Of a stretch of DNA of 64,000 bases, positions 7,135 through 58,737 are shown in pieces; position 1 is the first letter of the stretch; every line of letters starts with the position of its first letter. The notes beneath the pieces are model-generated. The model did no database searches. It worked only from the letters and a program-made list of their open reading frames with translations, and was not told where the DNA came from. A program made the position numbers and the translations under genes. Origin of the DNA: an uncultured bacterium (GTDB lineage Bacteria; UBA8481); assembly GCA_964499705.1 (NCBI GenBank), contig CAZCME010000002.1:62001-126000 (forward strand), given 5' to 3'.

Positions 7135-8085
7135 TCAGTCCAGCGCCGCGAGATTCTCGTCCAGGTGTTCCTTCGATTTCATGCCGACCAGCGCGCAGGC
7201 GATACCGGGTGTGGAGAGCACGAAGCGAATTGAGGCTTGAGCAGGGGAGCCCGCGTAATCTGACGCGGGACCCGATTTGGCCGCCGCGAGTTTTCCCTGG
7301 GACAGCGTCGCGGATGTGAAGACTTTCAGACCCAGCGTGGTTGCGGCATCCAGTGTGCTCACGCCGCGCTGATTCTTCAGATCGCGCAATTCCGTCATCG
7401 CGCCATTGTAAGGCCCCTGGATGTATCGGAAATGATGATTCTCCCCGCCGGCTTCTCTCGCCAGGTCCCAAAGCCGGTGCAGGTCGAGATACTCCTGCGC
7501 TTCCGGATCGACGCGGAATCCGTTCCAGGTCGCCATGCCATAGGCGCCGATGCGCCCTTCCCCGGCTTCCTGCTCCAAAGCCACGAATGCTTCCCGTATC
7601 CGCGCCTCAAAGACCGGTCGGTTGTTCTCCGCAAGCTGCGCTTCCGGATTGTGGACGTAGAAGAGATCGATCCGGTCCATGCGGAGATTCCGGAGCGAGA
7701 GCTTCAGGGAATGCTTCAGGTAGGCCGCCGCGATGCAGTGGCAGCCGTCGACGATCTCCTCGGTCTTCATGACGCCGTTGCGGAGAAGCGTGTCGCGGAA
7801 GATGTTCTGCATCGACATCGTGGCGCGCGCGTCGCCCGGGATATATCCGCCTTTCGTGGCGATGAAGAGCTGATCGCGCTTGATGCCCCTGCCCTTCAGA
7901 TGGAGCATGGCGGTCTCGATGGCGTGCTCCGACCGCTGCCTCCGGTAGTTGACCGCGGTATCGATCACGTTGATCCCGCGCGCACAGGCCTCCACGATCG
8001 TATCGACATACTCGTCGTTGACCGTCTCCGTGTCCTTGCCGAGATACGTGCCGATCCCGATACGCGACAACACGGGAACGCTCAT
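7135..8085 (-). CDS. Aldo/keto reductase
   Basis: SRIGIGTY, GINVIDTAVNYR, IATKGG, IDLFYVHNPE, LVGMKS.EHL.EN. Confidence 0.9.
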   Translation of the reverse strand: MSVPVLSRIGIGTYLGKDTETVNDEYVDTIVEACARGINVIDTAVNYRRQRSEHAIETAMLHLKGRGIKRDQLFIATKGGYIPGDARATMSMQNIFRDTLLRNGVMKTEEIVDGCHCIAAAYLKHSLKLSLRNLRMDRIDLFYVHNPEAQLAENNRPVFEARIREAFVALEQEAGEGRIGAYGMATWNGFRVDPEAQEYLDLHRLWDLAREAGGENHHFRYIQGPYNGAMTELRDLKNQRGVSTLDAATTLGLKVFTSATLSQGKLAAAKSGPASDYAGSPAQASIRFVLSTPGIACALVGMKSKEHLDENLAALD

Positions 8086-11000: not shown

Positions 11001-11432
11001 ATCGGCCGCCGGTTCGGATGGAAACAACCCCTTGATGCTCCAGCCCTTGTCTTCCCGATACCGGACATTGAGGATCGCCGAATCCACCGTGACGAATTCG
11101 ATGGTGGGATCGAACCGCAGCAGCGAGAAGAAATTGGGCCAGGCGCGCACGCCGGTCAGGACGAGCACCGGCCCCGTATCGATCACGCCGTCGCCCGGCA
11201 CGATGATGTCGTCGGCCCACAGGGAACGCGTCAGCACGGGATTTTCCACGGTGACGGGCCGGCCGAAGGCGCCGGTCAGGACGGTTTCGAGCTGATGCTT
11301 CAGACCCGCGTTGATGCGCACCACGAGAAACGTGATCGAAATGACGAACGCGATGAGAAAACCGACGACGATATGGCGGATCCGGGGGATTCGCAGCAGC
11401 CGTCGCCATTTACGTCGCGCATGATCTTCCAT
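8082..11432 (-). CDS. Large AsmA/YdbH-like intermembrane (lipid-bridge) protein
   Basis: Single N-terminal TM then about 1100 aa of beta-strand-rich, Gly-patterned sequence; C-terminus resembles the YdbH domain; GGAG SD before ATG 11432. Confidence 0.6.
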   Translation of the reverse strand: MEDHARRKWRRLLRIPRIRHIVVGFLIAFVISITFLVVRINAGLKHQLETVLTGAFGRPVTVENPVLTRSLWADDIIVPGDGVIDTGPVLVLTGVRAWPNFFSLLRFDPTIEFVTVDSAILNVRYREDKGWSIKGLFPSEPAADPKLGKLLMPKTTINFDANGQVFSRTLNVSIVLGRFGDYTCRFDDHMVKGKFTFTGSEENNPVYSLTVALDSIPIMARPESLKLTTVFREASKQVSFDLTTGLRGTPARIAGALSFNESSLRSDSAFWEFGPHRGDLVAAVDDLDNKRFLLATTGTIEFAAKDLGDRFSEGTIAVDGASVTGGVKGEWEIKAKARAAGLSMSGDASVEDLTGNIDLRAALSESFRLTPAQYSGTLRFAKASARDNVIHGGDIRFTGSGRTIELTGHASRFETANGASTHGTPARSGTSGRIVRTAPEPAATAYFPDRSLRGKVRRIPGRAVELRKFKVGFDSRWELTELGGGIRVAGLDGNMIGANTPDLSVDSLDIDMQNAGLRKDGAKWRILRVTGTIDRAEGAWHRNGFRIEKAKVDLTEGARGISGRFDGHLEAFGARGDVDARLVNNDIRQAKIDVKGLDVDAVRRFRSHEYLDQLARHVRTIDIDGTAEFADATGSDPAGLRFNGKASTRRGKLAPPDAAETSDNMHALSLQTELLAPDNKQLPVMIRSASLSIDDGKSRLSIGNTPLKTDQVATRLTIDRLHYDHLKNAAKIFSPNRFTEKLNVDGVVKGTVDLDKRGEAISAELNLAGNLMLRGSPLDFSVTGHLTDKEPTLLVNVSRVSPEAILQSFADLDSTMERGVMEWRGSAGANLTVIGSWTDANIEGTLQFHDASVRFPARKILFSGINGEVPFRLQKAKLLALGELESKRLTIERLTWADFIVREIACQARFNEKSLHFDKMDYNFAEGQGRGAFVIDFPTWDKPRTAFIGKIEGCSVGIVYRTMQPFKGQLEGRAAGQLKIQTEGTEFTALDADFVIKNGILGSELLQGFQGAKQDEGNIIKSALSSLDIWYFTDATIKLEFKKNFYSAAASRAFHNFTSRNEIFADILVQGPIKPLEKFTIMEKISPFAFLQIQTVLHIERMRMYQFMDRVGKRFQ

Positions 11433-11513
11433 ATAATTGCTCCGTGCCACGTTCAATTCGCGCCGTAAGGGGCGTCAATTTCACATCCACTCGCCTGGGA
11501 TGCCTTCACGACC

Positions 11514-16261: not shown

Positions 16262-18466
16262 ATGTCAGGCATCTCGTTTTCCGGGCTGGCGTCCGGCATT
16301 GATTTTGATTCGCTTCGATCGGCGCTTTTATCCGTGGAGCGACAGAGCTTAAAGCGCATCACCGACAAGCAGGACCGGATCGAACAGCAGCGCGACGCCT
16401 TCAACGACATCAACAGCCGCCTCGCCAATCTCAAGACCAAGCTCTCGCCGCTCCTCGCGACCGGAACATCCAATCTCTTTTCGCAGGTCTCCGCGTCCTC
16501 TTCCAACACGAGCGTATTTTCCGCGACCGCGACATCGAGCGCCGCCGCGGGGACGTATGACATCCGCGTGAAGAATCTCGCGCTGGCGGAAAGCGTCATA
16601 TCCGCGCAGGGGTCGAGCGTCGGATCCTTCACCTCCTCCATCGGCGGGACCGATCTGAATGCGGACATCGATGCGGCCACAACGCTCGTCGGGTCGCTCC
16701 ATCGCCGCGACACGTCCGCCAGCTTCGTGGACGGCGATCTCGGCCAGATGATGATCGACGACGGCGTGACGGGCGCCGTCAACGTCGACCTCTCACTGGG
16801 CGTCACATCCGCCAGCACATTTTCCGATTTGACCACCTACATTAACGGCCAGCTCGCGGGCGCGGGCTCGGCGGTCACCGCGTCCGTTAACGCGACCGGC
16901 GACGGGATTCTCTTCTCCTCCGGTACGGGCAATGTTTCCATCGCCGACGGCGGCGACGGAAAGACGACGGCGACGAAATTCGGCGTGGCGACGGCGGGAC
17001 TTGTCGCCGCTCCGGTGGACGGCGGAGACCTGGACGCCGATCTGCAGAGCGACACGCCTTTGGCGAAGTTGAACAGCGGCGCCGGCGTCGCGGATCTCGC
17101 CAGCGGATTCAAGATCCGCAACGGTTCCTCGTCCGTGACCGTGGACGTTTCCGCCTCCGCGACCGTCAGCGACATCCTAGCGCAGATCAACGGCGCCGGC
17201 ATCAGCGCGACGGCCGCGATCGACGCGGCCAAGAACGGCCTCAGCGTCACTTCGACCGTCGCCAACCGATCTCTCGCGATCGAGGAGAACGGCGGCTCCA
17301 CCGCGGTCAATCTCGGCATCTTCGGAGACTCGAATGTTCTGCAGTTGAAGACCGCGGCGGATGCGTCCTACTTCAAGGTCTACCTCAACGGGTCGTACGA
17401 TGGAGACTCCGCCAACCTTTCGCTCGAGGACATCCGCGATTCCATCAACGCGGTCTCGGGAAAAACATTCTCGGCCTCCGTCGTCGACAGCCGCCTTTCT
17501 TTCCAGTCCGATAAATCCGGCGTGGCCAACGCCCTGCAGGTCAAGGACACGGAGGTGGGCGCCGGAATTCTCGAACAGCTCGGCATCCTCGATGTGAATC
17601 CAGCCGACGATTCGACGATTTCGAATGCGTTCGCCGGCAACAATGCGCTGGGCGGCTACCTGCAGACCGCCACGAACGCTGTCTTTTCCGTGAACGGACT
17701 CCAGGTCAGCCGAGCGTCCAACACCGGCATCACCGATGTCATCACCGGAGTCACACTGAATCTCGCGGGCGCATCCGCCTCTTCCGGCCCCGCATTTCCG
17801 ACGGACTACACATCGTCGAGCCTGACCATTTCGAAGAACACGACGTCCATGGCTAATTCCATCGAGGAGTTCGTGAACCAGTTCAATTCCGTCGTGGAAT
17901 TCATCAACACGTCGGCGCAGGTGAATCCGGACGGAGACGACGGCATCCTGGCGGGCAACAGCATCGCGCGGAGCCTGCGGGATTCGCTGGTGTCACGCGC
18001 GTCGCAGCTCAATCCCGACCTGGGCCAGACCTTCCGTTCGCTCTTCGACATGAAGGACTCCGAAGGCAACGCCGTCTTTGAGCTCACCGACTCCAAGAGC
18101 GGCCAGATCACGCTCAACAAGACCGCGCTCACGAATCTCCTGAACGAGGATCCCGACAGCGTCTCGGACGTGCTGCGCTACGACAGCGACGCCGACGGCG
18201 TCTACGACGGAGGAATCGCGCACGCGCTGAACGTGATCGTGGAGAGCTACAACAAGACGAACACGGGCATCATCGCTTCGCAGGTGACTTCGTATGAGGA
18301 CCAGATCGACGACCTCGATGACCAGCTTCTCCGGATGAACGAGACCCTCGAGAAACGCGATGCGCTCCTGAAAAAGCAATTCTCGTCCGCGGAGCAGCTC
18401 ATCTCGCAGATGCAGTCGCAGGGCAATTACCTCTCCTCCCAACTGGCGGGCTTCGCCAAGCGCTGA
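16262..18466 (+). CDS. fliD: Flagellar filament cap protein (HAP2), extended
   Basis: N-term ISFSGLASGIDF, AAAGTYDI.V.NLA; C-term NA.F.VNG..V.R.SN..TDVITGVTLNL, FV.QFN, LKKQFS..EQLISQMQSQ.NYL. Confidence 0.93.
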   Translation: MSGISFSGLASGIDFDSLRSALLSVERQSLKRITDKQDRIEQQRDAFNDINSRLANLKTKLSPLLATGTSNLFSQVSASSSNTSVFSATATSSAAAGTYDIRVKNLALAESVISAQGSSVGSFTSSIGGTDLNADIDAATTLVGSLHRRDTSASFVDGDLGQMMIDDGVTGAVNVDLSLGVTSASTFSDLTTYINGQLAGAGSAVTASVNATGDGILFSSGTGNVSIADGGDGKTTATKFGVATAGLVAAPVDGGDLDADLQSDTPLAKLNSGAGVADLASGFKIRNGSSSVTVDVSASATVSDILAQINGAGISATAAIDAAKNGLSVTSTVANRSLAIEENGGSTAVNLGIFGDSNVLQLKTAADASYFKVYLNGSYDGDSANLSLEDIRDSINAVSGKTFSASVVDSRLSFQSDKSGVANALQVKDTEVGAGILEQLGILDVNPADDSTISNAFAGNNALGGYLQTATNAVFSVNGLQVSRASNTGITDVITGVTLNLAGASASSGPAFPTDYTSSSLTISKNTTSMANSIEEFVNQFNSVVEFINTSAQVNPDGDDGILAGNSIARSLRDSLVSRASQLNPDLGQTFRSLFDMKDSEGNAVFELTDSKSGQITLNKTALTNLLNEDPDSVSDVLRYDSDADGVYDGGIAHALNVIVESYNKTNTGIIASQVTSYEDQIDDLDDQLLRMNETLEKRDALLKKQFSSAEQLISQMQSQGNYLSSQLAGFAKR

Positions 18467-26552: not shown

Positions 26553-27145
26553 GCCGTCATCTCCTTCCACCAGGGATCCAGGATTTTCCGGAGCCTGGAT
26601 CTTGCCGAGTGGAGCCTGCTCATCACGGTGCCGATGGGAATATCAAGCGCCGCGCAGACTTCGCGGTATTTCATACCGGACTCCTCGTGCAGCATGAAGA
26701 CCGCGCGTTCGGCTTCGGGAAGATTTTCCACCGCGCTGGAGATCGCGCTCGCTAGCGACCGCGCCTCGGCCACCTCGGATGGCCCCTGTCGATCGGAACG
26801 CGTCCTGTCATCGACCTCATCGGCGCTCTCGTTGCGCCGCACGCGGATTCGATCGAGCGCGCCTCGCGCGGCAATTCCGCACACCCACGTGGAAAACGCC
26901 GCGTCGCCGCGGAATTCCGACAGCTTTCTCCACGCCTTCACGAATGCCTCCTGCGCCACGTCCCATGCCTCGTTCTCGTCGCGGATCATCCGTCGGGAAA
27001 CGGCGAGAACCTTGGGAAGCGCTTCCTTCACGAGCCGTTCAAACGATGGCTCGTCGCCACGTCTTGCCCGTTCCAGAAGGCTCGCCTGATCCATGCGCGC
27101 CTGTTCCGGACGGGCCTGCTTGATGTCCTTTTCCGCTTCCACCAT
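26549..27145 (-). CDS. ECF RNA polymerase sigma factor
   Basis: DVAQEAFVKAW..L..FRG..AFSTW; LPE.ERAVF.L....GMKY.EV...L.IPIGTVMSRL..AR. Confidence 0.93.
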   Translation of the reverse strand: MVEAEKDIKQARPEQARMDQASLLERARRGDEPSFERLVKEALPKVLAVSRRMIRDENEAWDVAQEAFVKAWRKLSEFRGDAAFSTWVCGIAARGALDRIRVRRNESADEVDDRTRSDRQGPSEVAEARSLASAISSAVENLPEAERAVFMLHEESGMKYREVCAALDIPIGTVMSRLHSARSRLRKILDPWWKEMTA

Positions 27146-27305
27146 TCTGACGGCGATTATGTGGCGATTATTCGACGATTCAAGCGTGATGCGTGCGAGA
27201 AATTCCGATTATGACGGCTCGTGCAGGGAGAGGAGAGACGCCTCTTTCTGCTGCGCATGGAAAATCATCATCGAATCCTCCGGTCGTGATAGGATTCCAG
27301 CGGTC

Positions 27306-28676
27306 ATGAGCGTGATATTACTCTTATGCGCGACGATTGCTTCCGGGCAGGTGGATTCCGCGGGACGATGGGAGCTCGCGCGGGAAATCGTGTCGCGTTC
27401 CAATATTGCGGATACGGAATATCCGGGGTGGATCGCGAGCCCGCATGCCTGTGTCCGGAAAGCGGCGCTTTTCCGGATGATGGAGGAGGGCGATGCTTCT
27501 TTCGAAACGATGATCCAGCCGTGCTTGAAGGATTCGAGCTGGTCGGTGCGGCGGCAGGCGGCGCACGCTCTGGAACGATGCGGCACCGGCCGATCCCGGG
27601 TTCTGCTCGAAAACGTCGCCCTCTCCCTGGATTCTCCCGCGGTTCGTTCACGCGCGATCTACGCTCTCGGTTTTCTCGCCGATACCCGCTCATTCGATGT
27701 CTTCGCCTCGCTGTTGGTTGATCCCGCATGGGATGTGCGCGGGCTGGCCGCGGACCAGATCCGCTATTTCGGCCGACGGGACATCCTGCCGGCGCTGGAG
27801 ACGCTGGCCGCGAGCGATCCGACGGAGTACGTGAAACTGCGCGCGCGTGGTTCGATCGACCATCTCTCCCCGCCAGACCGGAACGACGTCAACTCGTCCC
27901 CGGCAGCGCCGCCGCCGGATCAGACCATCACGCAAAGATTCCTGATCGCCGCCTCGACGGGGATTCTTATCGTCCTCATTACCGGCATGTTCATCGGCAC
28001 TGAGCGATCGCGCAGGGCGGCCAGCGTGCTGGTGCTTATCGTCGCGATCGTGGTCGGCGGCAGCGTGACCTCCGCGCTCTTGTTCCGGAACGATCCGTCA
28101 TCCTCTAAGAAGGTGGCGATTCGAGTCGAGCCCGCACTGCGATCGTACTGGCAGGATCAGTACGGAATAACCGTTGAAGATATTCTGAAGTATCAGGTCC
28201 TGTTCCTGCGGAAGGAGATCGGCTGCGACGCCTTGACGGCGATCGAATCCTGTCCCATCGCTCCGGCATACAATGCCGTGCGCGCCCAATACAATACCGA
28301 CTCTTCCCTCCGTATCCTGCTCGGGTCAGGAGAAGCGCGGATCATTTATCTGACGGGAAGCGATCTTTACCAGGAACCGTTTCATCACACCATGGGAGTC
28401 GGTTGTCCCGGCGCCGCCATAATTTCAGCCGCGCGCCTCGATCCGCTCTGGCTCGAGGAAGGGCCCGGTGATTCGGAGGATGCCGTCCAGTTCGCGGAAC
28501 GTTACGGCAAACTCGTTCTGCATGAAATCGGACACCTGCTCGGACTGGGGCATTGCACGCGGGAGCGCTGCCTCATGAGATCGGTGGAGACACCGGAGGA
28601 GTTTTTCAGGCTGGATGGGGTGTATTGTTCCACCTGCACGGCGAAGGCGGCAGCCCAGGTCCGCATGACACGATAG
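27306..28676 (+). CDS. HEAT-repeat / two-TM / archaemetzincin (M54-like) zinc protease fusion
   Basis: PBS-HEAT repeats (D.SW.VR..AA.AL, DPAWDVR.LAA), two TM helices, HEIGHLLGLGHC...CLM...CSTC. Confidence 0.75.
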   Translation: MSVILLLCATIASGQVDSAGRWELAREIVSRSNIADTEYPGWIASPHACVRKAALFRMMEEGDASFETMIQPCLKDSSWSVRRQAAHALERCGTGRSRVLLENVALSLDSPAVRSRAIYALGFLADTRSFDVFASLLVDPAWDVRGLAADQIRYFGRRDILPALETLAASDPTEYVKLRARGSIDHLSPPDRNDVNSSPAAPPPDQTITQRFLIAASTGILIVLITGMFIGTERSRRAASVLVLIVAIVVGGSVTSALLFRNDPSSSKKVAIRVEPALRSYWQDQYGITVEDILKYQVLFLRKEIGCDALTAIESCPIAPAYNAVRAQYNTDSSLRILLGSGEARIIYLTGSDLYQEPFHHTMGVGCPGAAIISAARLDPLWLEEGPGDSEDAVQFAERYGKLVLHEIGHLLGLGHCTRERCLMRSVETPEEFFRLDGVYCSTCTAKAAAQVRMTR

Positions 28677-28714: not shown

Positions 28715-29020
28715 ATGATCAGGAGCTTTGACGACTTGTTTGACGACGACCATGGCAGGGCCTTCGGAGATGCCCTGGCGAAGCTGAAGGCCGAAGCGAA
28801 GACGGGGCGGATTGAGCATGTCCTACATCGAATCATGGATGAAGCTTCGCGTTGCGGCGAACCTCGCGATCGGGATCCGGAACAAGCCCTTCGGCTCCTG
28901 GCTCTTGATGGCTATCTCACGGAAATACTGGGATCCGGGCTGGTGGCCGGCGATCGGCCGGATCTGAGCAAATATACGCAAGTATTGACCGGAGACATTC
29001 TCCGGGCTGCCGATAATTAA
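28715..29020 (+). CDS. Hypothetical protein (first gene of the glycosylation operon)
   Basis: 101-aa ORF preceded by TAACCT-6nt-ATG; ends 3 nt before the next ORF. Confidence 0.55.
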   Translation: MIRSFDDLFDDDHGRAFGDALAKLKAEAKTGRIEHVLHRIMDEASRCGEPRDRDPEQALRLLALDGYLTEILGSGLVAGDRPDLSKYTQVLTGDILRAADN

Positions 29021-29023
29021 TCC

Positions 29024-29632
29024 ATGGGTGCGAACAGGCCGGTGACAACCATGATTCATCCAACGGCGATTATCGATGCGGGTGCCGAGATCGGAGAAGA
29101 TACCAGGATCTGGCATTTCAGCCATGTCATGCCGGGAGCGCGAATCGGGAGCCATTGCAATTTCGGGCAGAACGTTTACATCGACAAGAACGTCATCGTT
29201 GGCGACCGGTGCAAGCTGCAGAACAATGTCTCGATCTACACGGGAGTCACGCTCGAAGAGGGCGTCTTTTGCGGCCCGTCCTGCGTCTTCACGAATGTCA
29301 TCAATCCGCGCGCCATGGTGGAGCGAAAGGACGAATTCAGGCTGACCCTTGTCAAGCGCGGGGCTTCCATCGGGGCCAACGCGACGATCGTCTGCGGCGT
29401 GACTCTGGGGGAATATTGTTTCATCGCCGCAGGGGCTGTTGTCACGAAGGATGTGGCTCCTTACGCGGTTGTCGCCGGCGTGCCGGCCCGGCGCATCGGC
29501 TTCGCCTGCGCGTGCGGGGATTTACTGAAAGAATTGTCCGCGGGGAAAACGAGAAGGTGCGCACGGTGCGGCGCCGAATATTCCCTGGAGGGCGACATGC
29601 TCCGCCGCCATTCCGCGAGTCCCGCCGGCTGA
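29024..29632 (+). CDS. Hexapeptide-repeat sugar N-acyltransferase (WbpD-like)
   Basis: [59 protein letters not shown]-terminal Cys motif; start may be ATG 29051. Confidence 0.9.
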
Positions 29633-29642
29633 CGATCCGCTC

Positions 29643-30353
29643 GTGACCGATCCATTCACCCCCGGCAGCGGCGTCACTCAGCTCGTCCTTCAGTCCCGCG
29701 TGGGTTCGACAAGGTATCCGGGAAAAGCTCTGGCCGATATTGCGGGGAGGCCATTGCAGGAACGCGTGATGATGCGGCTTGAGGTTTTGCATCCCGGTCC
29801 GTATATTCTCGCGCTGCCCGACACGGCGGCGAATGATCCGCTTGAGGAGATCGGCAGAAAGCGCGGCTGGCTGGTCTTCCGGGGCAGCGAATCGGATGTG
29901 CTCGGCCGCTTCGCCGGAGCGGTGCGCGCTTTTCGACTGACGCGTGTCGTTCGGGCCACCGCCGACAATCCCCTGGTCGATCCCGCCGCCATGAGCGGCG
30001 TCTGCCTGGCGTTGGCTGATCATGAGTGCGTCGGCACACATGGCTTCAGTCACGGCGCGGCGGTCGAGGGAGCCTCCGGCGACGCGCTGTTGCGCGCCGC
30101 CGAGGAGGCGACTGATCCGTATGAGCGGGAACATGTAATGCCCCACTTTTACCGCCACCCGGAAATATACGCCACGACCTATGTGGATGCGCCCGCGTCA
30201 TCCCGATATCAACAGTCGTTCACGGTGGACACAGCCAATGATGTGGAACGAGTCCGTTCGGTCTTCGCCGCGCTGGGCGATATGCCGGAACTGGCCGATG
30301 TCGAGGCCTATCTGTCACGACGGCAATCTGTCGTCGTTGGAAATCTCACATGA
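29643..30353 (+). CDS. SpsF/PseF-like cytidylyltransferase
   Basis: QSRVGSTRYPGKAL, FRGSESDVLGRF, VRATADNPLVDP, EREHV.P, TVDT..D. Confidence 0.88.
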   Translation: MTDPFTPGSGVTQLVLQSRVGSTRYPGKALADIAGRPLQERVMMRLEVLHPGPYILALPDTAANDPLEEIGRKRGWLVFRGSESDVLGRFAGAVRAFRLTRVVRATADNPLVDPAAMSGVCLALADHECVGTHGFSHGAAVEGASGDALLRAAEEATDPYEREHVMPHFYRHPEIYATTYVDAPASSRYQQSFTVDTANDVERVRSVFAALGDMPELADVEAYLSRRQSVVVGNLT

Positions 30354-31357
30354 CGGTCACATCCTTCCGCGTCGATGCCAATCCCGATGCCGGGCTGGGT
30401 CATTTTCATCGCTCCGTCCGGATCGCCTCGGAGCTGGCCCGGCGGGGCCACAGGCCGGTCTTCGTCACGCGCGACCGCGAAGCTCTGGCCCGGCTCGCCG
30501 TCGGGCAGGGATTCGACCACATCGTGGGATTCGCCGAAGACAAGGACGAAATCAACGCGATCCTCTCGCCGGGTCCAGGACTTGTGATCTTCGATAACGG
30601 ATCGACAACCCACGACATGGTCGCGGCCGTGAAGGAGGTCGGATGCTTCGTCGTGACGTTCGATGATCTCGGTGACGGCCGCTACCTGGCCGACATTGCC
30701 GTGGACGCCAATCTGACGGAATCCACGAATCCGCAGAAGATGAGAACGACCACGCGCTACCTGCTGGGCCCCGGCTTTGCCGTCGTGTCTCCGCATTGCC
30801 GCACGGCCCGAAAGAAGAGAAAAAATTTCCGCGACGTCCACCGCGTGATCGTCTCATGCGGCGGCAGCGATCCGGCGGGGGTGACGCCGCGCATCGTGAT
30901 GGCGCTCGGAAATTATGACACGGAAGTGGAGATCCAGCTCATTCTGGGCCCCGCTTTCGCTCACAGGGCGGAGCTGGACAAGGCTCTGCTTTCAGCGGCC
31001 CGGACTTTCGAGGTTGTGGAGGCGCCCGACGATCTGCCGACGCGGCTGCGCGCCGCCGACGTCGGCATACTTTCCGGCGGCGTCACGCTCTTCGAGGCGG
31101 CCTTTCTCGGTCTGCCCTCGATCGTCATCGCGCAGAATCCGGCGCAACTGCGGAACCTTCCTCCGTTCGAGAAGCGCGGCGGTATCGTCAACCTGGGTCT
31201 TGCCGCGCACGAGCCGTTCGCCAATATACCCGCGGAGCTGAAACTGCTGCGCGACAGGGGAAAATTGCGCGCCATGTCCGAGGCGCAGGAAACGTATGTG
31301 GACGGCAAGGGGCTCGATCGTGTGGTATCTGCGATTCGGGAGTTGCTGGGAACATGA
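30350..31357 (+). CDS. PseG/SpsG-like NDP-sugar hydrolase (GT28 fold)
   Basis: FRVDA....GLGHF.RS, FDD, GGSDP.G.T, GG.TLFEA..LGLP, VDGKG..RV. Confidence 0.85.
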   Translation: MTVTSFRVDANPDAGLGHFHRSVRIASELARRGHRPVFVTRDREALARLAVGQGFDHIVGFAEDKDEINAILSPGPGLVIFDNGSTTHDMVAAVKEVGCFVVTFDDLGDGRYLADIAVDANLTESTNPQKMRTTTRYLLGPGFAVVSPHCRTARKKRKNFRDVHRVIVSCGGSDPAGVTPRIVMALGNYDTEVEIQLILGPAFAHRAELDKALLSAARTFEVVEAPDDLPTRLRAADVGILSGGVTLFEAAFLGLPSIVIAQNPAQLRNLPPFEKRGGIVNLGLAAHEPFANIPAELKLLRDRGKLRAMSEAQETYVDGKGLDRVVSAIRELLGT

Positions 31358-32142
31358 CGCCTCGACGTTCCCGACAACCGGCATTTCGCGGGTACGCCCG
31401 CGCCGTGGAGGCGACCCGGCGACTGGTGAGCGAACACGCCTGCGTGCTCATGAAGATCGCGACCGAGGACGAGGCTCTGACGCACGAGGACGTGCGCCGG
31501 CGATTCGATGCTTTTTCGAGCGCGATTCCCATCGAGCTGAAGATCGGCGGACCGGGCGCTCGAGGAGATCTGGTGCTCTGCCGGGACCTGGGCATCAGGC
31601 ATATCATCGCGCCGATGGTGGAATCGGCCTATGGGCTCATCGATTTTCTCGGCGGTGTCCGCGAGGTTTTCGGCGCGGGTGCGAAAGGGCTGAAACTGGG
31701 CGTGAATATCGAGACGGAAGGGGCGGCCCGGGACATTAAAGCTGTACTGAAAGGGGACGACAGGAACGAGCTCTACCAGGTGACGGTGGGCAGGGGGGAT
31801 CTGTCCCGGTCGATGGGGAGGACGCCGGATGACGAACGCGTGATGAAGCTGGCCGGTTCCGTGATCCGATGCGCGCATGGCCGGGGCTATGTCACTTCGG
31901 TCGGGGGTGGAGTTCATCCCGGTAATGTCACCCTGATCCTCCGGCGGGTGAGTACGGAATATGTGAACACGCGTAACTTCGCGTTCCGCGCCGCTCCTGG
32001 ACATGAGGCGGAATCTCTTCGCCGTGCGGTGCGGTGCGCGCTGGAAGCGGAGATTCTTCTATGCCGCGCCACAGGAACCGCGCTTGCCCGGGCTCGCGCG
32101 AAAGCTCTTGCGGAACGGCTCCGCGTGGAGGGCAAGCCATGA
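31354..32142 (+). CDS. HpcH/HpaI aldolase-citrate-lyase family protein
   Basis: LKIGG..AR.D, IIAPMVES, GVNIET, VGRGDLS.S, SVGGG. Confidence 0.75.
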   Translation: MTPRRSRQPAFRGYARAVEATRRLVSEHACVLMKIATEDEALTHEDVRRRFDAFSSAIPIELKIGGPGARGDLVLCRDLGIRHIIAPMVESAYGLIDFLGGVREVFGAGAKGLKLGVNIETEGAARDIKAVLKGDDRNELYQVTVGRGDLSRSMGRTPDDERVMKLAGSVIRCAHGRGYVTSVGGGVHPGNVTLILRRVSTEYVNTRNFAFRAAPGHEAESLRRAVRCALEAEILLCRATGTALARARAKALAERLRVEGKP

Positions 32143-34346
32143 TATTCATCATCGGAGCGGGTCTCATGCAGATCCCCGCGATCCGCATCGCGAGCCAGAT
32201 GGGTCTGAAGACGATCGTCACGGACTACAATCCGGAGGCTCCGGGTCTGGCCCTGGCGGACGTGCCGATCGTGATGTCCACGAAGGACATCGAGGGCACG
32301 GTCCGCACCGCCCGGCAATATCATCACAAGATTCGCGGCGTGCTGACCGTGGGAACCGACGCGTCGCTCACGGTATCCGCCGTTGCCGGCGCTCTCGGGC
32401 TGACCGGCATCCACTACGAAGCCGCTGAAAAGGCCACGCATAAGTTGAAGATGCGCAACGCGCTCCGGAACGCCGGCGTGGCGGTCCCGGAATTCGCCGG
32501 TGTCTGGTCGATCGATGAAGCGCGTGGAGCGGCGGAACGCATCCGGTATCCGGTCGTTTTCAAACCGGTCGACAACATGGGTTCGAGGGGTGTCATTCGC
32601 GTCGACAACATTACCCAGGTCGAGCAGGCTTATCGCCACGCCAAGTCGTGTTCCACGAGCGGAGAGGTGATCGTGGAGGCGTTCATGGACGGACCCGAGC
32701 TGTCCATCGATTCGCTGGTCTGGAACAGCGAGATCATCTGCTCGGGGGTCGCCGACCGCATCATCGCTCGTCCACCCTACTTCATTGAACTGGGTCACAA
32801 TCTTCCTTCGGCGCAGCCGCCTGAAATCCAGGAGGCCGCCGTGGAATTGATGCGGGGCGCCGTGAAAGCCCTGGGCATCACCTGTGGCGCCGCCAAGGGC
32901 GACGTCAAGATCACGAAGGACGGTCCCATGATCGGCGAATGCGCGGCGAGGCTCTCCGGCGGATGGATGAGCTCGCACACGTTTCCGCTCTCGACGGGCT
33001 ATTCGATGATCCGCGGCGCGATCGAGATTGCGATCGGCAGGAAGCCGGTGATTCCGGAGTTTCTTAACCGCGTGGCGATGGAGCGTGCCGTGCTGGCGGT
33101 GCCGGGGCGGATCACCCGGATCGATGGAGTGAACCAGGCGCTCCGGATAAAAGGCGTCAAGGATATCATCATGAAAGCTCGCATCGACGATATCGTGACC
33201 GTGCCGATTTCGAACATGGAGAAGCAGGGGCATGTGATAGCGGTTTCGGAGACGAGCGAAGAATGCGAAGCGATCGTGAAGAAGGCGCTGGAGACGATCC
33301 GCATCGAGACCCATATCGATCAGCCGTTGAAGATGGCGGATATTCATGGCCGCGCGAGAAACCTCTTCGGCAAATACTGCCGGGCCTGCCGGGTCTGTGA
33401 CGGCGTCTTCTGCGCGGGCATGGTGCCGGGCATGGGCGGAATCGGGACGGGATACAGCTTCATGGCCAATCTCGAGGCGCTCGGGAAGTACAGGATGGTG
33501 GAGCGGCTCATTCATTCCGTTTCCAGCCCGCGCATGGCCACCACGCTTCTGGGACTTGAACTTTCGATTCCCGTCATCGCGGCTCCGATCACGGGAGCCG
33601 TCACCAACATGGGCGGTGCCATAACGGAGGAGGATTTCGCGGAAGCGATGGTGATGGGAAGTCTGCGCGGCGGCACCGTCTCCTGCGTCGGCGACGGCGC
33701 GACGCCCGACAAGTACCGCATCGGCCTCGATGCCGCGTCCCGCGCGGCGGGAAAGGCGATTCCCATCTTCAAGCCCCGGGCAAAATCCGAGGTGATGACC
33801 CGCGTTCGCGCGGCAATCGCTTCCGGCTGTCCCGCCATCGGCATGGATATTGACGGAGCCGCCTTTGTGACCATGAGATCCCGCGGCCAGAGCGTCGGGC
33901 CCAAGGACGCCGATGAGCTCCGCTCGATCATCGCGGAGTGCGAGGTTCCGTTCCTCGTGAAGGGCATCATGAACGCGCGCGACGCGGAGACCGCCGTCAA
34001 GGCCGGCGCGGCCGCGGTCATTGTCGGAAATCATGGAGGACGCGTCATGGATCAGATGCCGGGCGGCGCGGAAGTTCTCCCCGAGATCGTCGCCGCGATA
34101 CGAGGAAGCGCGGTGATCATCCTGGATGGGGGCATTCGAACGGGAGAGGATATTCTGAAATCCTTGGCGCTGGGCGCGGATCTCTGCATGATCGGGCGGC
34201 CCGTCGCGATCGCGGCCGTCGGCGGCGGCAGCGAAGGCGTCGCGCTCTACTGGAAGGAATTGAAGGAGCAGATCGAACGCGCGATGATCCTGACGGGGCA
34301 GGAGAGCGTGGAGAGGATCGATCCCGGTATCATCCGGAAAGCGTGA
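32139..34346 (+). CDS. Fusion: ATP-grasp ligase + FMN-dependent alpha-hydroxy-acid dehydrogenase
   Basis: N-half IIGAG..Q, K.KMR, VFKPVDNMGSRGV, EAFMDGPELS, E..ARL.GG; C-half CRACRVCDGVFC, APITG, VKGIM, GNHGGR, DGGIRTGED..K.LALGA...IGRP. Confidence 0.88.
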   Translation: MIFIIGAGLMQIPAIRIASQMGLKTIVTDYNPEAPGLALADVPIVMSTKDIEGTVRTARQYHHKIRGVLTVGTDASLTVSAVAGALGLTGIHYEAAEKATHKLKMRNALRNAGVAVPEFAGVWSIDEARGAAERIRYPVVFKPVDNMGSRGVIRVDNITQVEQAYRHAKSCSTSGEVIVEAFMDGPELSIDSLVWNSEIICSGVADRIIARPPYFIELGHNLPSAQPPEIQEAAVELMRGAVKALGITCGAAKGDVKITKDGPMIGECAARLSGGWMSSHTFPLSTGYSMIRGAIEIAIGRKPVIPEFLNRVAMERAVLAVPGRITRIDGVNQALRIKGVKDIIMKARIDDIVTVPISNMEKQGHVIAVSETSEECEAIVKKALETIRIETHIDQPLKMADIHGRARNLFGKYCRACRVCDGVFCAGMVPGMGGIGTGYSFMANLEALGKYRMVERLIHSVSSPRMATTLLGLELSIPVIAAPITGAVTNMGGAITEEDFAEAMVMGSLRGGTVSCVGDGATPDKYRIGLDAASRAAGKAIPIFKPRAKSEVMTRVRAAIASGCPAIGMDIDGAAFVTMRSRGQSVGPKDADELRSIIAECEVPFLVKGIMNARDAETAVKAGAAAVIVGNHGGRVMDQMPGGAEVLPEIVAAIRGSAVIILDGGIRTGEDILKSLALGADLCMIGRPVAIAAVGGGSEGVALYWKELKEQIERAMILTGQESVERIDPGIIRKA

Positions 34347-35629
34347 TCAAGGTGGAGCGGGAACCGACATCCACGGGATTCGACACACTGGTTGTCGACG
34401 GCCGGTATTTTCACAGCCGCGTAAATCCTCGCAAGGAAGCATCACGCGCGGCGTCGGCCGTCGCGCCGGATGCGCTGGCGCTCATCCTGTCTCCCGGCCT
34501 CGGTTACCTGGCGGACGCGCTCAAGCCCAGGGACGTGATTTCCGTCGAACGGCATCCGCAACTTGCCGTCCTGCGCCCGGATCTGAATTCCCTCGTGCAT
34601 CCCTCGTGCGAGGAATTGGAAAGACTGGTGGAGACCCTTGCGGCGGAGCGCCGGCCGAAGATCGCCGTCCTGACCGGAGCTCATCGGGAGGAGGATCATG
34701 AATATTACGAGTCGCTCCGGAAGGCGATCACCCGCGCGCTGGAGAAGAGCGTCGAGCGGATACTGACGACGGATGCCTTTGCGAAGGTCTGGGAAAGAAA
34801 CCTGCGAGCCAACGTCATGCGGATCCTGCAGGCGCGAAACGGCGAAGTGTCCTGGAGTTCGGCGCTGGAGCCGCGGCTGAGAGGATCGCATTGCGTGCTC
34901 CTGTCCGCCGGACCGACGCTTGGCGAGGAACTTCCGCTCCTGTCGAAGATGCTGCACCGGGGCAAGTACCTTATCCTGGTTGTCGATTCAGCGTTGCCGG
35001 CCGCTCTTTCCGCCGGAATCAGCCCGGACCTGGTCTTCACGATCGATCCCCAGCCCGTCAAAGCCGCGGTGTTGAGCAACCTTGAGGATATACCCCTCGT
35101 TGCCTCGGTGCTTTCGCCACCGGAAATTCTCGCGCGCGCCGGCAGGCTCTATCTCTTCGGCCAGGGGCATCCTATGGAGCCTTCTGTGGGTGTGCCGCTG
35201 GCGGAGATGATACAGGAATTGGGAGGATCGGTGGCGACGGCCGCCGCGACGATCGCCGTACGGCACGGCGCGGCGACGCTGGTTCTTGCAGGCCAGGATC
35301 TCGCGTTCATCGGCGATCGCACGCACGTGCGGGGAGCAGCGCAGGAAGCCGCGAGCGCCGCCGGTCTGGAGCGATTTTCGACCATGGAACATGCTAAGAT
35401 GAGAACCATGATCGGCCGAAATCTGAGATGCGTGCCGTCCGTCGCGGACGGGATGGTCATGACCACTCCCGTCATGGACTCTTACCGCATCTATCTGGAA
35501 CGGCTCGCCCGCGACAATCCCGGCACGAGATTTGTGCATACGAGTTCTCGCGGAGCGCGGATGGCAATGCCCCATCTTAGCCTCGCGGAATGGTTGAACG
35601 AATTCGGCTCCGGCGCCGATAAAGTATAG
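34343..35629 (+). CDS. Motility-associated factor (Maf/DUF115) flagellin glycosyltransferase
   Basis: G.Y.HSR.NP..EA, GLGY, SAGPTL, VDSAL, PD.V..IDPQ, GGSVAT.A, L.GQDLAF; immediately upstream of fliS. Confidence 0.85.
   Translation: MIKVEREPTSTGFDTLVVDGRYFHSRVNPRKEASRAASAVAPDALALILSPGLGYLADALKPRDVISVERHPQLAVLRPDLNSLVHPSCEELERLVETLAAERRPKIAVLTGAHREEDHEYYESLRKAITRALEKSVERILTTDAFAKVWERNLRANVMRILQARNGEVSWSSALEPRLRGSHCVLLSAGPTLGEELPLLSKMLHRGKYLILVVDSALPAALSAGISPDLVFTIDPQPVKAAVLSNLEDIPLVASVLSPPEILARAGRLYLFGQGHPMEPSVGVPLAEMIQELGGSVATAAATIAVRHGAATLVLAGQDLAFIGDRTHVRGAAQEAASAAGLERFSTMEHAKMRTMIGRNLRCVPSVADGMVMTTPVMDSYRIYLERLARDNPGTRFVHTSSRGARMAMPHLSLAEWLNEFGSGADKV
35595..35622 (+). promoter_or_regulatory. 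Sigma28 promoter of fliS embedded in the maf 3' end
   Basis: TGAA-16nt-GCCGATAA, same spacing as the fliD promoter. Confidence 0.6.
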
Positions 35630-35636
35630 GAAGTCC

Positions 35637-36056
35637 ATGGCGGTCAATCCCTACAAGCAATACAAGACGACATCGATCCAGACGGCCAGCCAGGGGCGCT
35701 TGATCGCGATGCTGTTCGAGGGCGCCATAAAATTCATGAATTTCTTCATCGAAGCTGTCCATACAGGGAAGATCGAACTGGCTCATGAGAATTCCATGAA
35801 AGCGCAGAGGATCATGACGGAGCTGATCCTGGCGCTCGATCATTCGAAAGGCGGCGACGTTTCGCGCGCGATCGAGGCGGCCTACGACGATATACGCACG
35901 CGCATGGTGATTTCAAACATCCGCAAAGATCCCGTGCTCGCCGCCGCCGTCATCAAGGATCTGGACTCTTTTCGCGAGACATGGTCGAAGGTATTCAAGG
36001 AAGTGGATGTCGCGTCGCCTCCGGCCATGCAGGCGGGAGTCTCCATCAAGACATGA
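35637..36056 (+). CDS. fliS: Flagellin export chaperone
   Basis: NPYKQYK..SIQTAS..RLI.MLFEGAI, KAQ.I..EL...LD...GG, ETW. Confidence 0.92.
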   Translation: MAVNPYKQYKTTSIQTASQGRLIAMLFEGAIKFMNFFIEAVHTGKIELAHENSMKAQRIMTELILALDHSKGGDVSRAIEAAYDDIRTRMVISNIRKDPVLAAAVIKDLDSFRETWSKVFKEVDVASPPAMQAGVSIKT

Positions 36057-36502
36057 GTCCTCTGAAGGAATGGATGCGTGAAACGGCGCTGCTCTACCGT
36101 GATTATTCCAGGAAGCTGGCGATCTGGGCGGAGGACACCGATGAGCAGGCGAAGCTGGAAGACCGTCTGGCGGACCTGGCGTTGATGGAAACGGAGTTCA
36201 TGGAGCGATCGCATGAGATCACCCGCAACGTGGATGAGGGCCGCCGCATGCAATCCAGGCGGGTGGGTCACGATGTCACCCTTCACGAATGGGCACGCTC
36301 CGAGGGGATTCTTCCGGAATTCGAGGAGGCTGCCGCGGCCGTGGCTGACGTCTCCCGGAAACGGGTCGAGGCCATGAGAATCCTGGAAGAGGTCCGCAAT
36401 AAAATTAAGAGCGAGCGGGACAAGATTTCCCGTGCCAGGAAGACGAACAGCAAGTATACTAGACCACGTGAAAGCGGTCGCCGGCTCAATGGTCAAGCTT
36501 AA
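36053..36502 (+). CDS. Helical flagellar chaperone-like protein (FliT/FlgN-like)
   Basis: ATGA-coupled to fliS; coiled-coil; C-terminal Y...R.NGQA tail. Confidence 0.5.
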
Positions 36503-37313
36503 CCGTTTCGCGGCCGCGTCTGCGATCTTGTTCCTCTCCATCCTGCCATCATCGTCGTCGATCTACGCCTACACGGATGCCCAGGGAAGAATCAGGATCA
36601 CGGACATCCCGGATCGTGACGGCCAGGAAATCGTTCTTCCCCGGATCAGGGCTTCGCATGGGCCGGTCGTCATTGCCGGCAATGTCGGATCCCGCTCCTC
36701 CACTTCGAGCCCTCGCACAGCCTATTCGGCGGGAACCTCCGCAAGGCGCTACAGCGCGGAAGATTATCGAGCGCAGGTTCGAGCCGCCGCGCAGACGCAT
36801 CGTTTATCGGAATCGCTCATCTTCGCGGTGATGCGCGCGGAATCGAACTTCAATCCCCGCGCCGTCTCCCGGGCGGGGGCTCAGGGGCTCATGCAGCTTA
36901 TCCCTTCCACGGCGAGACTGGTCGGAGTTCGGGATATTTTCGATCCCCAGCAGAACATCAACGGAGGCGCGCGCTATCTCCGGATGATGATGGACCGGTT
37001 CGGCCGCGTCGATCTGGCCCTGGCCGCCTACAATGCCGGACCGGAAGCCGTCGAGCGGCATGGCGGGATCCCCCCTTACCAGGAGACGCGCAACTACGTG
37101 CCGCGAGTGATGAAATACTATCGCGAATTCGGAGGTTCGGGCGAACTCGTTCTGACATCCGTGAAGCCGCTGACACCTTCCCGCGCGACGACCGCGCGCA
37201 CGACGTCCCGCCCCCGGACCGGTTCCACGCCGTCCGTCATTGCGCGCGCGGCTTCCAATCCCATCTTTTACTTCAGGGGACCCGACGGGCAGATCTATAT
37301 CTATAACAGATAG
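36489..37313 (+). CDS. Lytic transglycosylase (SLT domain)
   Basis: [49 protein letters not shown]; signal peptide. Confidence 0.93.
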
Positions 37314-37320
37314 GGATGCA

Positions 37321-38025
37321 TCATGAAGGATGAAGCGCTTCATCCTTGAACTGAAGAATATGCACCCATGCCGGCGGCACGTTAAGCCGCACCATCTTTC
37401 TCGAAATCCTGTGCCGGTTCAGATAATCCGAGAGTATGGTGTCGATGCGCTTCAACCGGATAAATTCCGTTTTCTCGCGACCGATACGGAGCCGCACATT
37501 CCGGACGTGACAATATTCGAAGAAGGCGAGCTTTCCGTCCTCCGCCAGCGTTTCCTCGAAGGCAGCCATGCATTTCCGGACGAGCGTCGACGGAAAATTA
37601 TTGAAGGGGAGGCTGCAGATGGCGAAGTCGAATTGTTCGCCGGTGACGCCTTCCGGGAAGGGCAGCACCCTGAGCTCCATGCCGCGGTCCCGCCAGTCCG
37701 GATCGTGCACTCGCCGGGCTTCCAGAATGCGGGCGAATTCCTGGGATAATTCGTAAACGACCAGAGTATCGTCCGGCCGGATCGCCTTGAGGATTTCGGA
37801 GGTTATGGCGCCTGTGCCGGCGCCGACCTCGAGTATGCGGAGCGGCTTCCGCCTGTGATGCCGATCCGGCAGAATGGATGTCATGGCGCGCGCCAGCGAG
37901 CGCGAGGAAGGAATGATCGAGCCGGTCTGCTTCCAGTTCGTGGCGAATCCGGAAACAAAGCCGACAATCGCGCGTATAGGATGGCTCGGTGACTTTGCCT
38001 TGGGGCGGTGCCCGCGGGAAGTCAT
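37321..38025 (-). CDS. SAM-dependent lipid N-methyltransferase (PmtA/OlsG-like)
   Basis: TGSIIPSSRSLARAM, ILEVGAGTGAIT, ICSLPFNNF, FFEY, NVPPAWV. Confidence 0.8.
   Translation of the reverse strand: MTSRGHRPKAKSPSHPIRAIVGFVSGFATNWKQTGSIIPSSRSLARAMTSILPDRHHRRKPLRILEVGAGTGAITSEILKAIRPDDTLVVYELSQEFARILEARRVHDPDWRDRGMELRVLPFPEGVTGEQFDFAICSLPFNNFPSTLVRKCMAAFEETLAEDGKLAFFEYCHVRNVRLRIGREKTEFIRLKRIDTILSDYLNRHRISRKMVRLNVPPAWVHILQFKDEALHPS
37326..37347. repeat. Perfect 22-bp palindrome of the GGATGAA heptamer family; possible bidirectional terminator
   Basis: AAGGATGAAGCGCTTCATCCTT at the junction of two convergent genes. Confidence 0.75.
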
Positions 38026-57933: not shown

Positions 57934-58737
57934 GTGAACGCACCGCGGCACTTTCATATCGATCGACCCGAATTCTTTCATCCGGCGCTGCCGAAAGCCC
58001 TGGATGGATTTCGGATCGTGTACATCTCCGACCTGCACGTGGCGCGCGGCGGATGCGCCGAAGACGAGCTGGCGCATTTTCTATTGTCGCGCGAATACGA
58101 CCTCGGCTTATTCGGAGGCGACTACCAGAACGGATTCGGGCCCGTTTCCGAGCACGCTTTCGGGATCATCGCCCGGATCGTGCGGGCGGTTCGAGCCCGC
58201 CATGGAGTCTACGGGTGCGTTGGTAATCACGACAGTCCGGACGTGGTCGCAAGGCTCAAGTCGGAATCGATTCGCATGGATGAAAACTGTTCGTACGAGA
58301 TCGCGCCGGGATTTCATCTCGTCGTGATCGGCGATGCCTGGGACCGCCATGACGATGTCCCACTCGCCATGCGCGATCTGCCTTCTTCCGGATTCCGGAT
58401 GACGCTCTCGCACGCCCCGGACGTCGCCTGGAAGGCCTCCCGCGCCGGCGCGCACGCGCTTCTCTGCGGACACACGCACGGAGGCCAGGTGCGCCTGCCG
58501 TTCATCGACAGCCCGGTCAAGCGCATCCGCGGAGACCGCCGGCTGGTGCGCGGAGATTTCCGGCTCGACCGGATGCTTCTTCATGTCACGCATGGATTCG
58601 GGACGAGCCTTTTTGCCATCCGCTATGGCACGCGCCGGTCGATCGCGGAAGTGACTTTGCGACATGGAGAACTGTGGAAGAACGCGGCGCCCCGGATATT
58701 CTCGAAGGAGACATGGAGGAAGCTCCGGAGTGCTTAA
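57934..58737 (+). CDS. Calcineurin-like metallophosphoesterase
   Basis: SDLH, GD, GNHD, SH.PD, GHTHGGQ. Confidence 0.9.
   Translation: MNAPRHFHIDRPEFFHPALPKALDGFRIVYISDLHVARGGCAEDELAHFLLSREYDLGLFGGDYQNGFGPVSEHAFGIIARIVRAVRARHGVYGCVGNHDSPDVVARLKSESIRMDENCSYEIAPGFHLVVIGDAWDRHDDVPLAMRDLPSSGFRMTLSHAPDVAWKASRAGAHALLCGHTHGGQVRLPFIDSPVKRIRGDRRLVRGDFRLDRMLLHVTHGFGTSLFAIRYGTRRSIAEVTLRHGELWKNAAPRIFSKETWRKLRSA

Follow-up and report, generated by a model that had tools for sequence, protein, structure and literature searches.

Why does a gene cluster that resembles a flagellin glycosylation operon carry a pyruvate-aldolase-like protein and an ATP-grasp ligase fused to a flavoenzyme? The question is raised by a 64,000-nucleotide stretch of DNA from an uncultured bacterium of the UBA8481 lineage (assembly GCA_964499705.1, contig CAZCME010000002.1, positions 62,001 to 126,000), which was analyzed as a whole and is referred to here as the window. 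Ten genes are tightly packed on its plus strand between positions 28715 and 37313. Within this run, the aldolase-like gene is translationally coupled to the fusion gene, and the two form a functionally coupled pair that recurs next to genes for nonulosonic (sialic-acid-like) sugars and flagella in other genomes. We propose that the run encodes a Maf-dependent module for the O-glycosylation of flagellin with a nonulosonic sugar, in which the pair would produce an acid from pyruvate and attach it to the flagellin nonulosonate through an amide bond, a reading in which we place about as much belief as doubt. Maf-type flagellin glycosylation is known; what is plausibly new here is the set of uncharacterized tailoring enzymes, that is, the ligase-flavoenzyme and its aldolase-like partner. 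The genes of the run, with protein lengths in amino acids (aa), are as follows.

28715..29020, plus strand: 101-aa protein, first gene of the tight run, ending 3 nt before the next gene
29024..29632, plus strand: hexapeptide-repeat (LbH) acyl/acetyltransferase (Pfam Hexapep, 80.6 bits)
29643..30353, plus strand: cytidine monophosphate (CMP)-sugar-type cytidylyltransferase (PF02348, 66.7 bits; cut-off, 22.6)
30350..31357, plus strand: PseG-like GT-B protein (TIGR03590, 132.6 bits, under the cut-off of 153.55), with ATGA overlaps at both ends
31354..32142, plus strand: divergent HpcH/HpaI-type TIM-barrel protein, P0001, 262 aa (homologues with PF03328, structure model, and profile match to YfaU)
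32139..34346, plus strand: fusion of ATP-grasp, four-cysteine (Cys4), and flavin mononucleotide (FMN)-dehydrogenase parts, P0002, 735 aa (Pfam ATP-grasp_4, LAL_C2, and FMN_dh)
34343..35629, plus strand: Maf-type (MptE-like) putative flagellin glycosyltransferase, P0003, 428 aa (PF01973, 88.4 bits; cut-off, 34.6)
35637..36056, plus strand: FliS flagellin export chaperone (PF02561, 100.9 bits; TIGR00208, 67.5 bits, above the cut-off of 53.75)
36053..36502, plus strand: 149-aa charged protein, P0005, with an ATGA overlap with fliS
36489..37313, plus strand (start at 36468 or 36489): SLT-domain lytic transglycosylase, flagellar type (PF01464, 108.8 bits)

A first-pass annotation of the window, made without database searches, had described this run, and every gene that it named was found at the coordinates listed above. 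Pfam and NCBIfam assign names to 7 of the 10 genes. Five junctions are 4-base start/stop overlaps, four of them ATGA and one GTGA, the latter joining the stop of the fusion gene to the start of maf, and the remaining gaps measure 3 to 10 nt. No sigma-28-like motif was found. The view of the cluster as a Maf/FliS-linked sugar operon is well founded, as the Maf match is far above its cut-off, fliS follows directly, and fliD lies in the same window at 16262-18466.

The fusion protein consists of an L-amino-acid-ligase (LAL)-type ATP-grasp ligase, a linker with the pattern CxxCxxCxxxxC, and an FMN-dependent alpha-hydroxy-acid dehydrogenase domain, with Pfam scores of 47.9 bits for ATP-grasp_4, 61.1 bits for LAL_C2, and 197 bits for FMN_dh (PF01070). 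The ATP-grasp fold together with LAL_C2 places the N-terminal half in the L-amino-acid-ligase branch. Among structures in the PDB, the protein matches the L-amino-acid ligase 3vot at an E value of 9e-27 and hydroxyacid oxidases at about 1e-31. Across 42 sequences of the fusion family, C414, C417, C420, C425, K608, H632, and R635 are invariant, and the last three line up with the VKG and HGGR/HGAR motifs of lactate and hydroxyacid oxidases, in which we take the Lys and the His/Arg to be catalytic. We would also expect a second, presumably carboxylate-binding Arg after the beta-4 Asp motif, at the position that we assume for glycolate oxidase; no invariant Arg follows D570-x-D572 in the 42-sequence alignment, and the N-terminal half of the FMN domain aligns poorly to solved oxidases, which makes the placement of this residue uncertain. 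An AlphaFold2 model of the whole fusion has a mean predicted local distance difference test (pLDDT) score of 88 and a predicted TM score of 0.58, with the Cys4 stretch at about 53, so that domain packing and a metal site are not readable from it. Two PDB chains labeled L-lactate oxidase (7f20 and 7f22; 720 to 736 aa) were considered as fused relatives and rejected, being tandem repeats of a single oxidase domain.

This fusion is not confined to the organism in the window. There are 670 relatives at an E value of ≤0.001 among 7,999 scored candidates, and those among the 120 matches listed are full-length and 50 to 86% identical. The ATP-grasp family profile matches 145 of 151 sampled Spirochaetota genomes at an E value of ≤1e-50. 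In contigs from a one-genome-per-species collection, 450 stretches encode a fusion relative; the best 80 of these 450, on which all counts of genome loci below are based, come mostly from metagenome-assembled genomes (MAGs) of Leptospirales or Spirochaetota.

The partner protein, P0001, has no Pfam match of its own at an E value of ≤0.001, and its assignment comes from its family and its predicted fold. Of its 47 relatives, many carry PF03328 (HpcH_HpaI), against which P0001 homologues score about 30 bits, and the ESM Atlas groups P0001 with HpcH/HpaI clusters. Its AlphaFold2 model (pLDDT, 94.3) is nearest in Foldseek to the class II pyruvate aldolases YfaU, HpaI, and HpcH, with template modeling (TM) scores of about 0.6. 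The family profile matches YfaU (E value, 2.6e-5), and the IET and GxxDLS motifs of the two line up. E120 (in N-x-E-T) and D149 (in G-R-x-D-L-S) are invariant in 44 sequences of the family and align with VESKTA and GPADLS of YfaU and with the corresponding motifs of HpaI. P0001 shares with these aldolases the fold and both motifs whose Glu and Asp we take to be metal ligands, but it is distant from them at 15 to 19% identity.

The same family also occurs in a second, fusion-free sugar context. On 12 of 13 IMG/VR contigs (L221-L233), it lies inside a conserved cassette with a DegT aminotransferase, a dehydroquinate-synthase-like protein, a thiamine pyrophosphate (TPP) enzyme, an epimerase, and a 4,6-dehydratase. 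Three further loci (L212, L214, and L215) are listed with these viral cassettes, which have eukaryote-type glycosyltransferases of families GT10, GT17, and GT34 nearby and possibly belong to large viruses.

A scan with the aldolase profile turned up 79 loci on metagenome contigs. The fusion gene directly adjoins the aldolase gene on the same strand in 22 of them, following it in 4 and preceding it in 18; in 34 loci whose two flanks can both be seen, the aldolase has no fusion gene next to it, and in the other 23, a flank is too short to judge. The two genes also adjoin each other in 4 of the 80 genome loci. The first-pass annotation had asked whether aldolase, fusion, and maf occur together across genomes: the coupling of the pair stands in the metagenome loci, but in 75 of the 80 best genome loci, the fusion gene is unlinked to sugar or flagellar genes.

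Linkage of these genes to nonulosonate and flagellar genes is found well beyond the window (L049, L160, L182, L173, L132, L135, L018, and G008), in several separate lineages, so that the outcome named by the first-pass annotation as refuting its idea, extra genes without linkage to maf or pseG elsewhere, did not occur. On L049, with a G+C content of 32% and neighbors 25 to 34% identical to those of the window, a cytidylyltransferase, a PseG-like protein, the aldolase, the fusion, and Maf follow one another. On L160, one strand carries an epimerase, a B12 radical-SAM protein, a GT2 glycosyltransferase, PseG (171.1 bits), the fusion, the aldolase, a NeuB-like protein, a Gfo/Idh protein, PseC (414 bits), a cytidylyltransferase, a PseB-like protein (345 bits), and flagellin; no PseH-type acetyltransferase is in view there. 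PseG-like, fusion, and aldolase genes stand together on L182, and a GT4 glycosyltransferase, a cytidylyltransferase, the aldolase, and an ATP-grasp gene stand together on L173. Two spirochaete loci link the ATP-grasp gene to a cytidylyltransferase and a PseG-like::methyltransferase protein (L132, genome G035) or to a tetratricopeptide repeat (TPR) protein and NeuB (L135). In genome G008, the ATP-grasp and TPR genes lie 4 kb from maf, and on L018, the fusion directly precedes Maf, which is followed by FliS. Overall, homologues of the window's cytidylyltransferase adjoin the ATP-grasp family in L049, L132, L160, and L173, and Maf homologues stand after the fusion in L016, L017, L018, and L049.

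In a FastTree phylogeny of 31 ATP-grasp domains, a quick tree with some long branches, the nonulosonate and flagellar contexts fall in at least five separate branches. The window's own clade consists of L016-L018. As the window's phylum has five sampled genomes, all with the fusion, L016 and L017 are kin and not independent cases.

Two features of these loci can be recorded beside the linkage itself. On L132 (positions 7620-9371), the PseG-like part is N-terminal and fused to an S-adenosylmethionine methyltransferase domain, between the cytidylyltransferase and ATP-grasp genes, and upstream of it is a radical SAM/SPASM gene whose N-terminal part is NTP_transf_3 (a spiro-SPASM-like architecture). 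A TPR protein of about 455 aa adjoins the ATP-grasp gene in spirochaete genomes (L131, L135, L136, and L234 [G008]); these proteins are homologous over their full length (21% identity; E values of 1e-11 to 1e-26), and TPR proteins are also next to the ATP-grasp-family gene in L074, L134, and L147. The approximately 455-aa protein may be a fourth component.

The remaining genes of the run can be assigned with differing firmness. Judged by its sequence, the LbH protein is probably a sugar N-acyltransferase: it scores 95.5 bits against the NeuD/PglB/VioB model TIGR03570, not reaching the cut-off of 160.8, and it is kept at the same position in L016 and L017 with 70 to 72% identity. For the cytidylyltransferase, labeled SpsF/PseF in the first-pass annotation, the PF02348 family match is above its cut-off, the PseF equivalog gave no match at an E value of ≤0.001, and NCBIfam returned weak KdsB-type matches only. 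The PseG-like protein is probably a nucleotide-sugar hydrolase, and its L160 homologue exceeds the TIGR03590 cut-off that the window protein falls below. The SLT protein has as its best NCBIfam match the Borrelia-type flagellar-assembly lytic transglycosylase NF047373 (107 bits, under its cut-off), and its gene is kept after fliS in L016-L018. P0005, previously labeled a chaperone, has no Pfam or NCBIfam match to back that name; it has a 39% identical homologue in L017, and L018 has a 150-aa open reading frame (ORF) at the equivalent place. The 101-aa protein likewise has no Pfam or NCBIfam match, and tblastn found no homologue in any of the 80 genome loci, making its membership in the system uncertain.

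From the gene identities, their tight packing, the coupling of aldolase and fusion, the recurring nonulosonate and flagellar linkage, and the conserved catalytic motifs, we infer a series of chemical steps, with their substrates and order. The PseG-like protein, the cytidylyltransferase, and the LbH acyltransferase would provide the hydrolysis, CMP activation, and N-acylation steps, with a 4,6-dehydratase, an aminotransferase, and a NeuB-type synthase supplied from elsewhere in the genome. The HpcH-like enzyme would add a metal-bound pyruvate enolate to a small aldehyde, yielding a 4-hydroxy-2-oxo acid. The Cys4-FMN half of the fusion would set the 2-hydroxy/2-oxo state at C2 of this acid, with its cysteines perhaps serving as an electron conduit in anaerobes, and the ATP-grasp half would convert the carboxylate to an acyl phosphate and join it through an amide bond to an amine on the sugar or on its hexose precursor, in place of an acetyl group. 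Maf would then transfer the CMP-activated sugar onto flagellin held by FliS. The first-pass interpretation is partly supported: the sugar operon and the coupled pair stand, and the chemistry that it proposed, a small hydroxy or keto acid amide-linked to a sugar amine, is an inference. ATP-grasp forms that lack the FMN domain are found paired with the aldolase as well (on L173 and in up to 10 Spirochaetota genomes), which marks the ligase as the core and the FMN domain as an accessory.

The proposed mechanism depends on enzymes encoded outside the run. As the first-pass annotation had observed, neither NeuB/PseI (PF03102) nor PseB has a match within the 64-kb window. A DegT-family sugar aminotransferase is encoded about 21 kb from the run (58734-60071, minus strand), beside hisA/hisH, with 238 bits against the PseC model, which is below the cut-off. 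A search of the 4.7-Mb genome recovered five strong NeuB-family paralogs, on contigs C7, C18, C3, C34, and C16, and a PseC/LegC-like aminotransferase, but no true PseB. The C34 copy of NeuB belongs to a cluster of the legionaminic type, which also encodes NeuC, a PseF-like protein, and WbuX/WbuZ/HisH. The C18 copy (74.5-86.4 kb, L097) has 751 aa with extra N- and C-terminal parts, and its neighbors encode an LIC12133-type methyltransferase, a LegB-like dehydratase, and the PseC/LegC-like aminotransferase. Because these five paralogs lie elsewhere in the genome, an operon without neuB reflects scattered genes and not a NeuB-free route, contrary to what its absence from the window might have suggested. 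The genome also encodes five Maf proteins, four of them in tandem on the minus strand of contig C6 (approximately 42.4-48.6 kb; L102-L106, L115/L116) without sugar biosynthesis genes alongside, and seven flagellin-sized genes, none of them within the window. A search of the genome for the FlaA sheath family PF04620 gave no match, but as its control matched nothing either, this negative is uninformative.

Across the 151 Spirochaetota genomes, the components are common but uneven. In 90 genomes, a single match covers both halves of the fusion, and in the others, the ATP-grasp half is encoded by a frame of approximately 420, 560, or 725 aa; MOSP_C, a Treponema sheath-protein domain, occurs in four of five tested genomes of the 560-aa class. 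MptE/Maf-like genes are present in 149 of the same genomes; the ATP-grasp family is likewise missing from the two Maf-less genomes (1.2 and 1.5 Mb) and, at the threshold used, from four others. The aldolase family is found in 54 genomes, all 54 of which also have the ATP-grasp family, 44 with the full fusion and 10 with ATP-grasp in a separate frame of 409 to 479 aa. Six of these 10 have a second match, outside the matches listed. The profile of aldolase versus FMN domain is not discriminating, and because kin share traits, the Spirochaetota phylogenetic profile as a whole is weak evidence.

Several observations weigh against the flagellin-tailoring reading. In the 75 unlinked genome loci, mostly of Leptospirales, tblastn finds the fusion without the other operon genes of the window, save a distant SLT or cytidylyltransferase gene in 3, and the four such loci that were annotated with Pfam have housekeeping genes on both flanks. 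The aldolase family is present elsewhere in three of five such genomes, likewise as a lone gene. In the commonest metagenome type (e.g., L147), the pair stands beside ATP-citrate lyase with no sugar genes within 8 kb. Both the PseG-like and LbH proteins of the window score under curated cut-offs, and no true PseB was found in a genome that is 95.97% complete (best match, 173.1 bits; cut-off, 407.75). The co-occurrence of Maf and ATP-grasp in Spirochaetota carries little independent information, as both are near universal. Finally, the Treponema-like genomes have only the 560-aa ATP-grasp form, without the FMN domain, and the aldolase was not found in them at an E value of ≤1e-10, even though Treponema denticola is the species with a known unusual acyl group.

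The lone genes would suit an alternative that we regard as rather unlikely, namely, that the product of the pair is a general small metabolite with no relation to glycans and that the pair is in the operon by accident or as a supply line (e.g., from lactate to pyruvate). Besides the 75 genome loci and the annotated Leptospirales loci, the ATP-citrate lyase neighborhoods of the L147 type favor this. It leaves unexplained why the family is linked to PseG, cytidylyltransferase, NeuB, Maf, or flagellin in at least five branches of the tree, why the pair is translationally coupled in the window, and why the aldolase family occurs in the amino-deoxy-sugar cassettes of 12 of 13 viral contigs. It is a less likely proposition that the ATP-grasp ligase acts after the sugar is built or transferred, amidating the C1 carboxylate of the nonulosonate or ligating a residue onto flagellin with the TPR protein as an adaptor. 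ATP-grasp amidoligases amidate glucuronate in Campylobacter capsules, the domain in question is of the L-amino-acid-ligase type (its match to 3vot), and the homologous TPR protein adjoins the gene in L131, L135, L136, and G008. However, the TPR homologue is not adjacent to the fusion in the window, and the position of the fusion gene between the sugar-nucleotide enzymes and Maf indicates a step before transfer; in silico, nothing distinguishes the acceptor.

We consider it highly improbable that the HpcH-like enzyme is itself a pyruvate-dependent nine-carbon-acid synthase that replaces the phosphoenolpyruvate-dependent NeuB/PseI, although this would explain an operon without neuB. The order of the PseG-like and aldolase genes would suit the use of a freed hexose, and the viral DegT/4,6-dehydratase/aldolase cassettes gave no match to the L160 NeuB query. 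On L160 itself, however, a NeuB-type gene directly follows the aldolase gene; the presence of both together favors a tailoring role for the aldolase and makes replacement of NeuB unlikely. In addition, ATP-grasp is linked to NeuB in L135, the genome of the window has its five NeuB paralogs, and the partner of the aldolase in 22 loci is ATP-grasp and not PseG.

Read as a flagellin-tailoring module, the operon resembles the pseudaminic/legionaminic acid (Pse/Leg) and Maf islands of Campylobacter, Helicobacter, and Aeromonas caviae in having Maf by flagellar genes, a PseG-like protein, a PF02348 cytidylyltransferase, and an N-acyltransferase. It differs from these islands in that the operon lacks NeuB/PseI, PseB, and PseC, and from the described Pse/Leg pathways in that it adds the HpcH-like, LAL-type ATP-grasp, and Cys4-FMN dehydrogenase domains. 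The best solved relatives of the N-terminal half of the fusion, the L-amino-acid ligases BL00235 (3vot), RizA (4wd3), and BacD (3vmm), have LAL_C2 in common with it, but they are stand-alone dipeptide synthetases, whereas the window enzyme is fused to Cys4-FMN and its family occurs in sugar and flagellar contexts.

Two other systems offer genetic precedents for the involvement of ATP-grasp genes in tailoring flagellin glycans. In Shewanella oneidensis, the flagellin modification operon sfmABCDE lies beside Maf, and loss of the ATP-grasp_4 protein SfmE lowers the flagellin mass shift (PMC3765264). As described there, the Sfm system has a NeuB-like protein, a TPP enzyme, a reductase, and a methyltransferase, with no aldolase or FMN domain, and SfmE is likened to the window ATP-grasp by its published description. 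In Clostridioides difficile type B flagellin, the ATP-grasp (PF13535) gene CDR20291_0245 is genetically needed for the amide-linked terminal moiety of the glycan (PMC5207246). Unlike the product proposed here, that glycan is not a nonulosonate, Maf is not involved, and the ATP-grasp protein has no fusion partner.

A closer chemical parallel is the FlaB glycan of T. denticola, which is a nonulosonic acid with a 2-methoxy-4,5,6-trihydroxy-hexanoyl group, a 3-deoxy-aldonic-type N-acyl (PMC13439194). The proposed product of the window would likewise be a flagellin nonulosonate with a nonacetyl acyl group, and Treponema-like genomes have the ATP-grasp family. By analogy, the acyl skeleton could be seen as a reduced, O-methylated 2-keto-3-deoxy-hexonate, as a pyruvate aldolase and a redox step at C2 would give. 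The lack of the aldolase and the FMN domain in Treponema-like genomes weakens this analogy. In the literature searched, no paper named genes for the unusual T. denticola acyl or tied an HpcH-type aldolase, ATP-grasp, and FMN oxidase to nonulosonates.

A bolder extension, which we hold only tentatively and think more doubtful than probable, is that the N-acyl tailoring machinery still missing for flagellin nonulosonate glycans of the spirochaete type is the LAL-type ATP-grasp, often fused to Cys4-FMN and paired with the aldolase, and that it attaches pyruvate-aldol-derived 3-deoxy-aldonic or 2-oxo acids, similar to the acyl group of T. denticola FlaB. If this is true, the window operon would be the "Rosetta stone" through which a gene near universal in spirochaetes is given a role in flagellar glycosylation, and the chemistry of the Leptospira FlaB glycan would be predicted too. 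Leptospira FlaB1 bears Ser/Thr-linked densities (PMC13144727), and the glycan is stated to be chemically uncharacterized (bioRxiv 10.1101/2022.03.03.482903). The operon places an enzyme family that occurs in nearly all of the sampled spirochaetes in a functional context for the first time and offers with it a concrete and testable assignment that plausibly reaches far beyond the genome of the window. It further suggests that the sialic-acid-like sugars of bacteria are substrates for carboxylate-amine ligase and aldolase activities that would be new.

Other genes in the window are of less certain bearing. A methyltransferase gene on the minus strand (37321-38025), directly beyond the run, is conserved in L016 and L017. 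It was considered as a member of the system and dropped, as its best matches are weak (lipid N-methyltransferases) and it barely resembles the methyltransferases beside other family members. On the other side, a 527-aa protein with HEAT repeats and an archaemetzincin-like (Peptidase_M54) domain is encoded at 27093-28676 on the plus strand, stopping 38 nt before the first gene of the operon; it has no tblastn match beside the operon in L016 or L017. A 1,124-aa ORF (8082-11456, minus strand) has a high G+C content at third codon positions (0.82) and no Pfam match at an E value of ≤1e-5. Like the sugar genes, the flagellar genes are scattered in the window: fliD and fliS are about 17 kb apart, with trpB, trpA, a TPR protein gene, accD, folC, and a DnaJ-domain gene between them.

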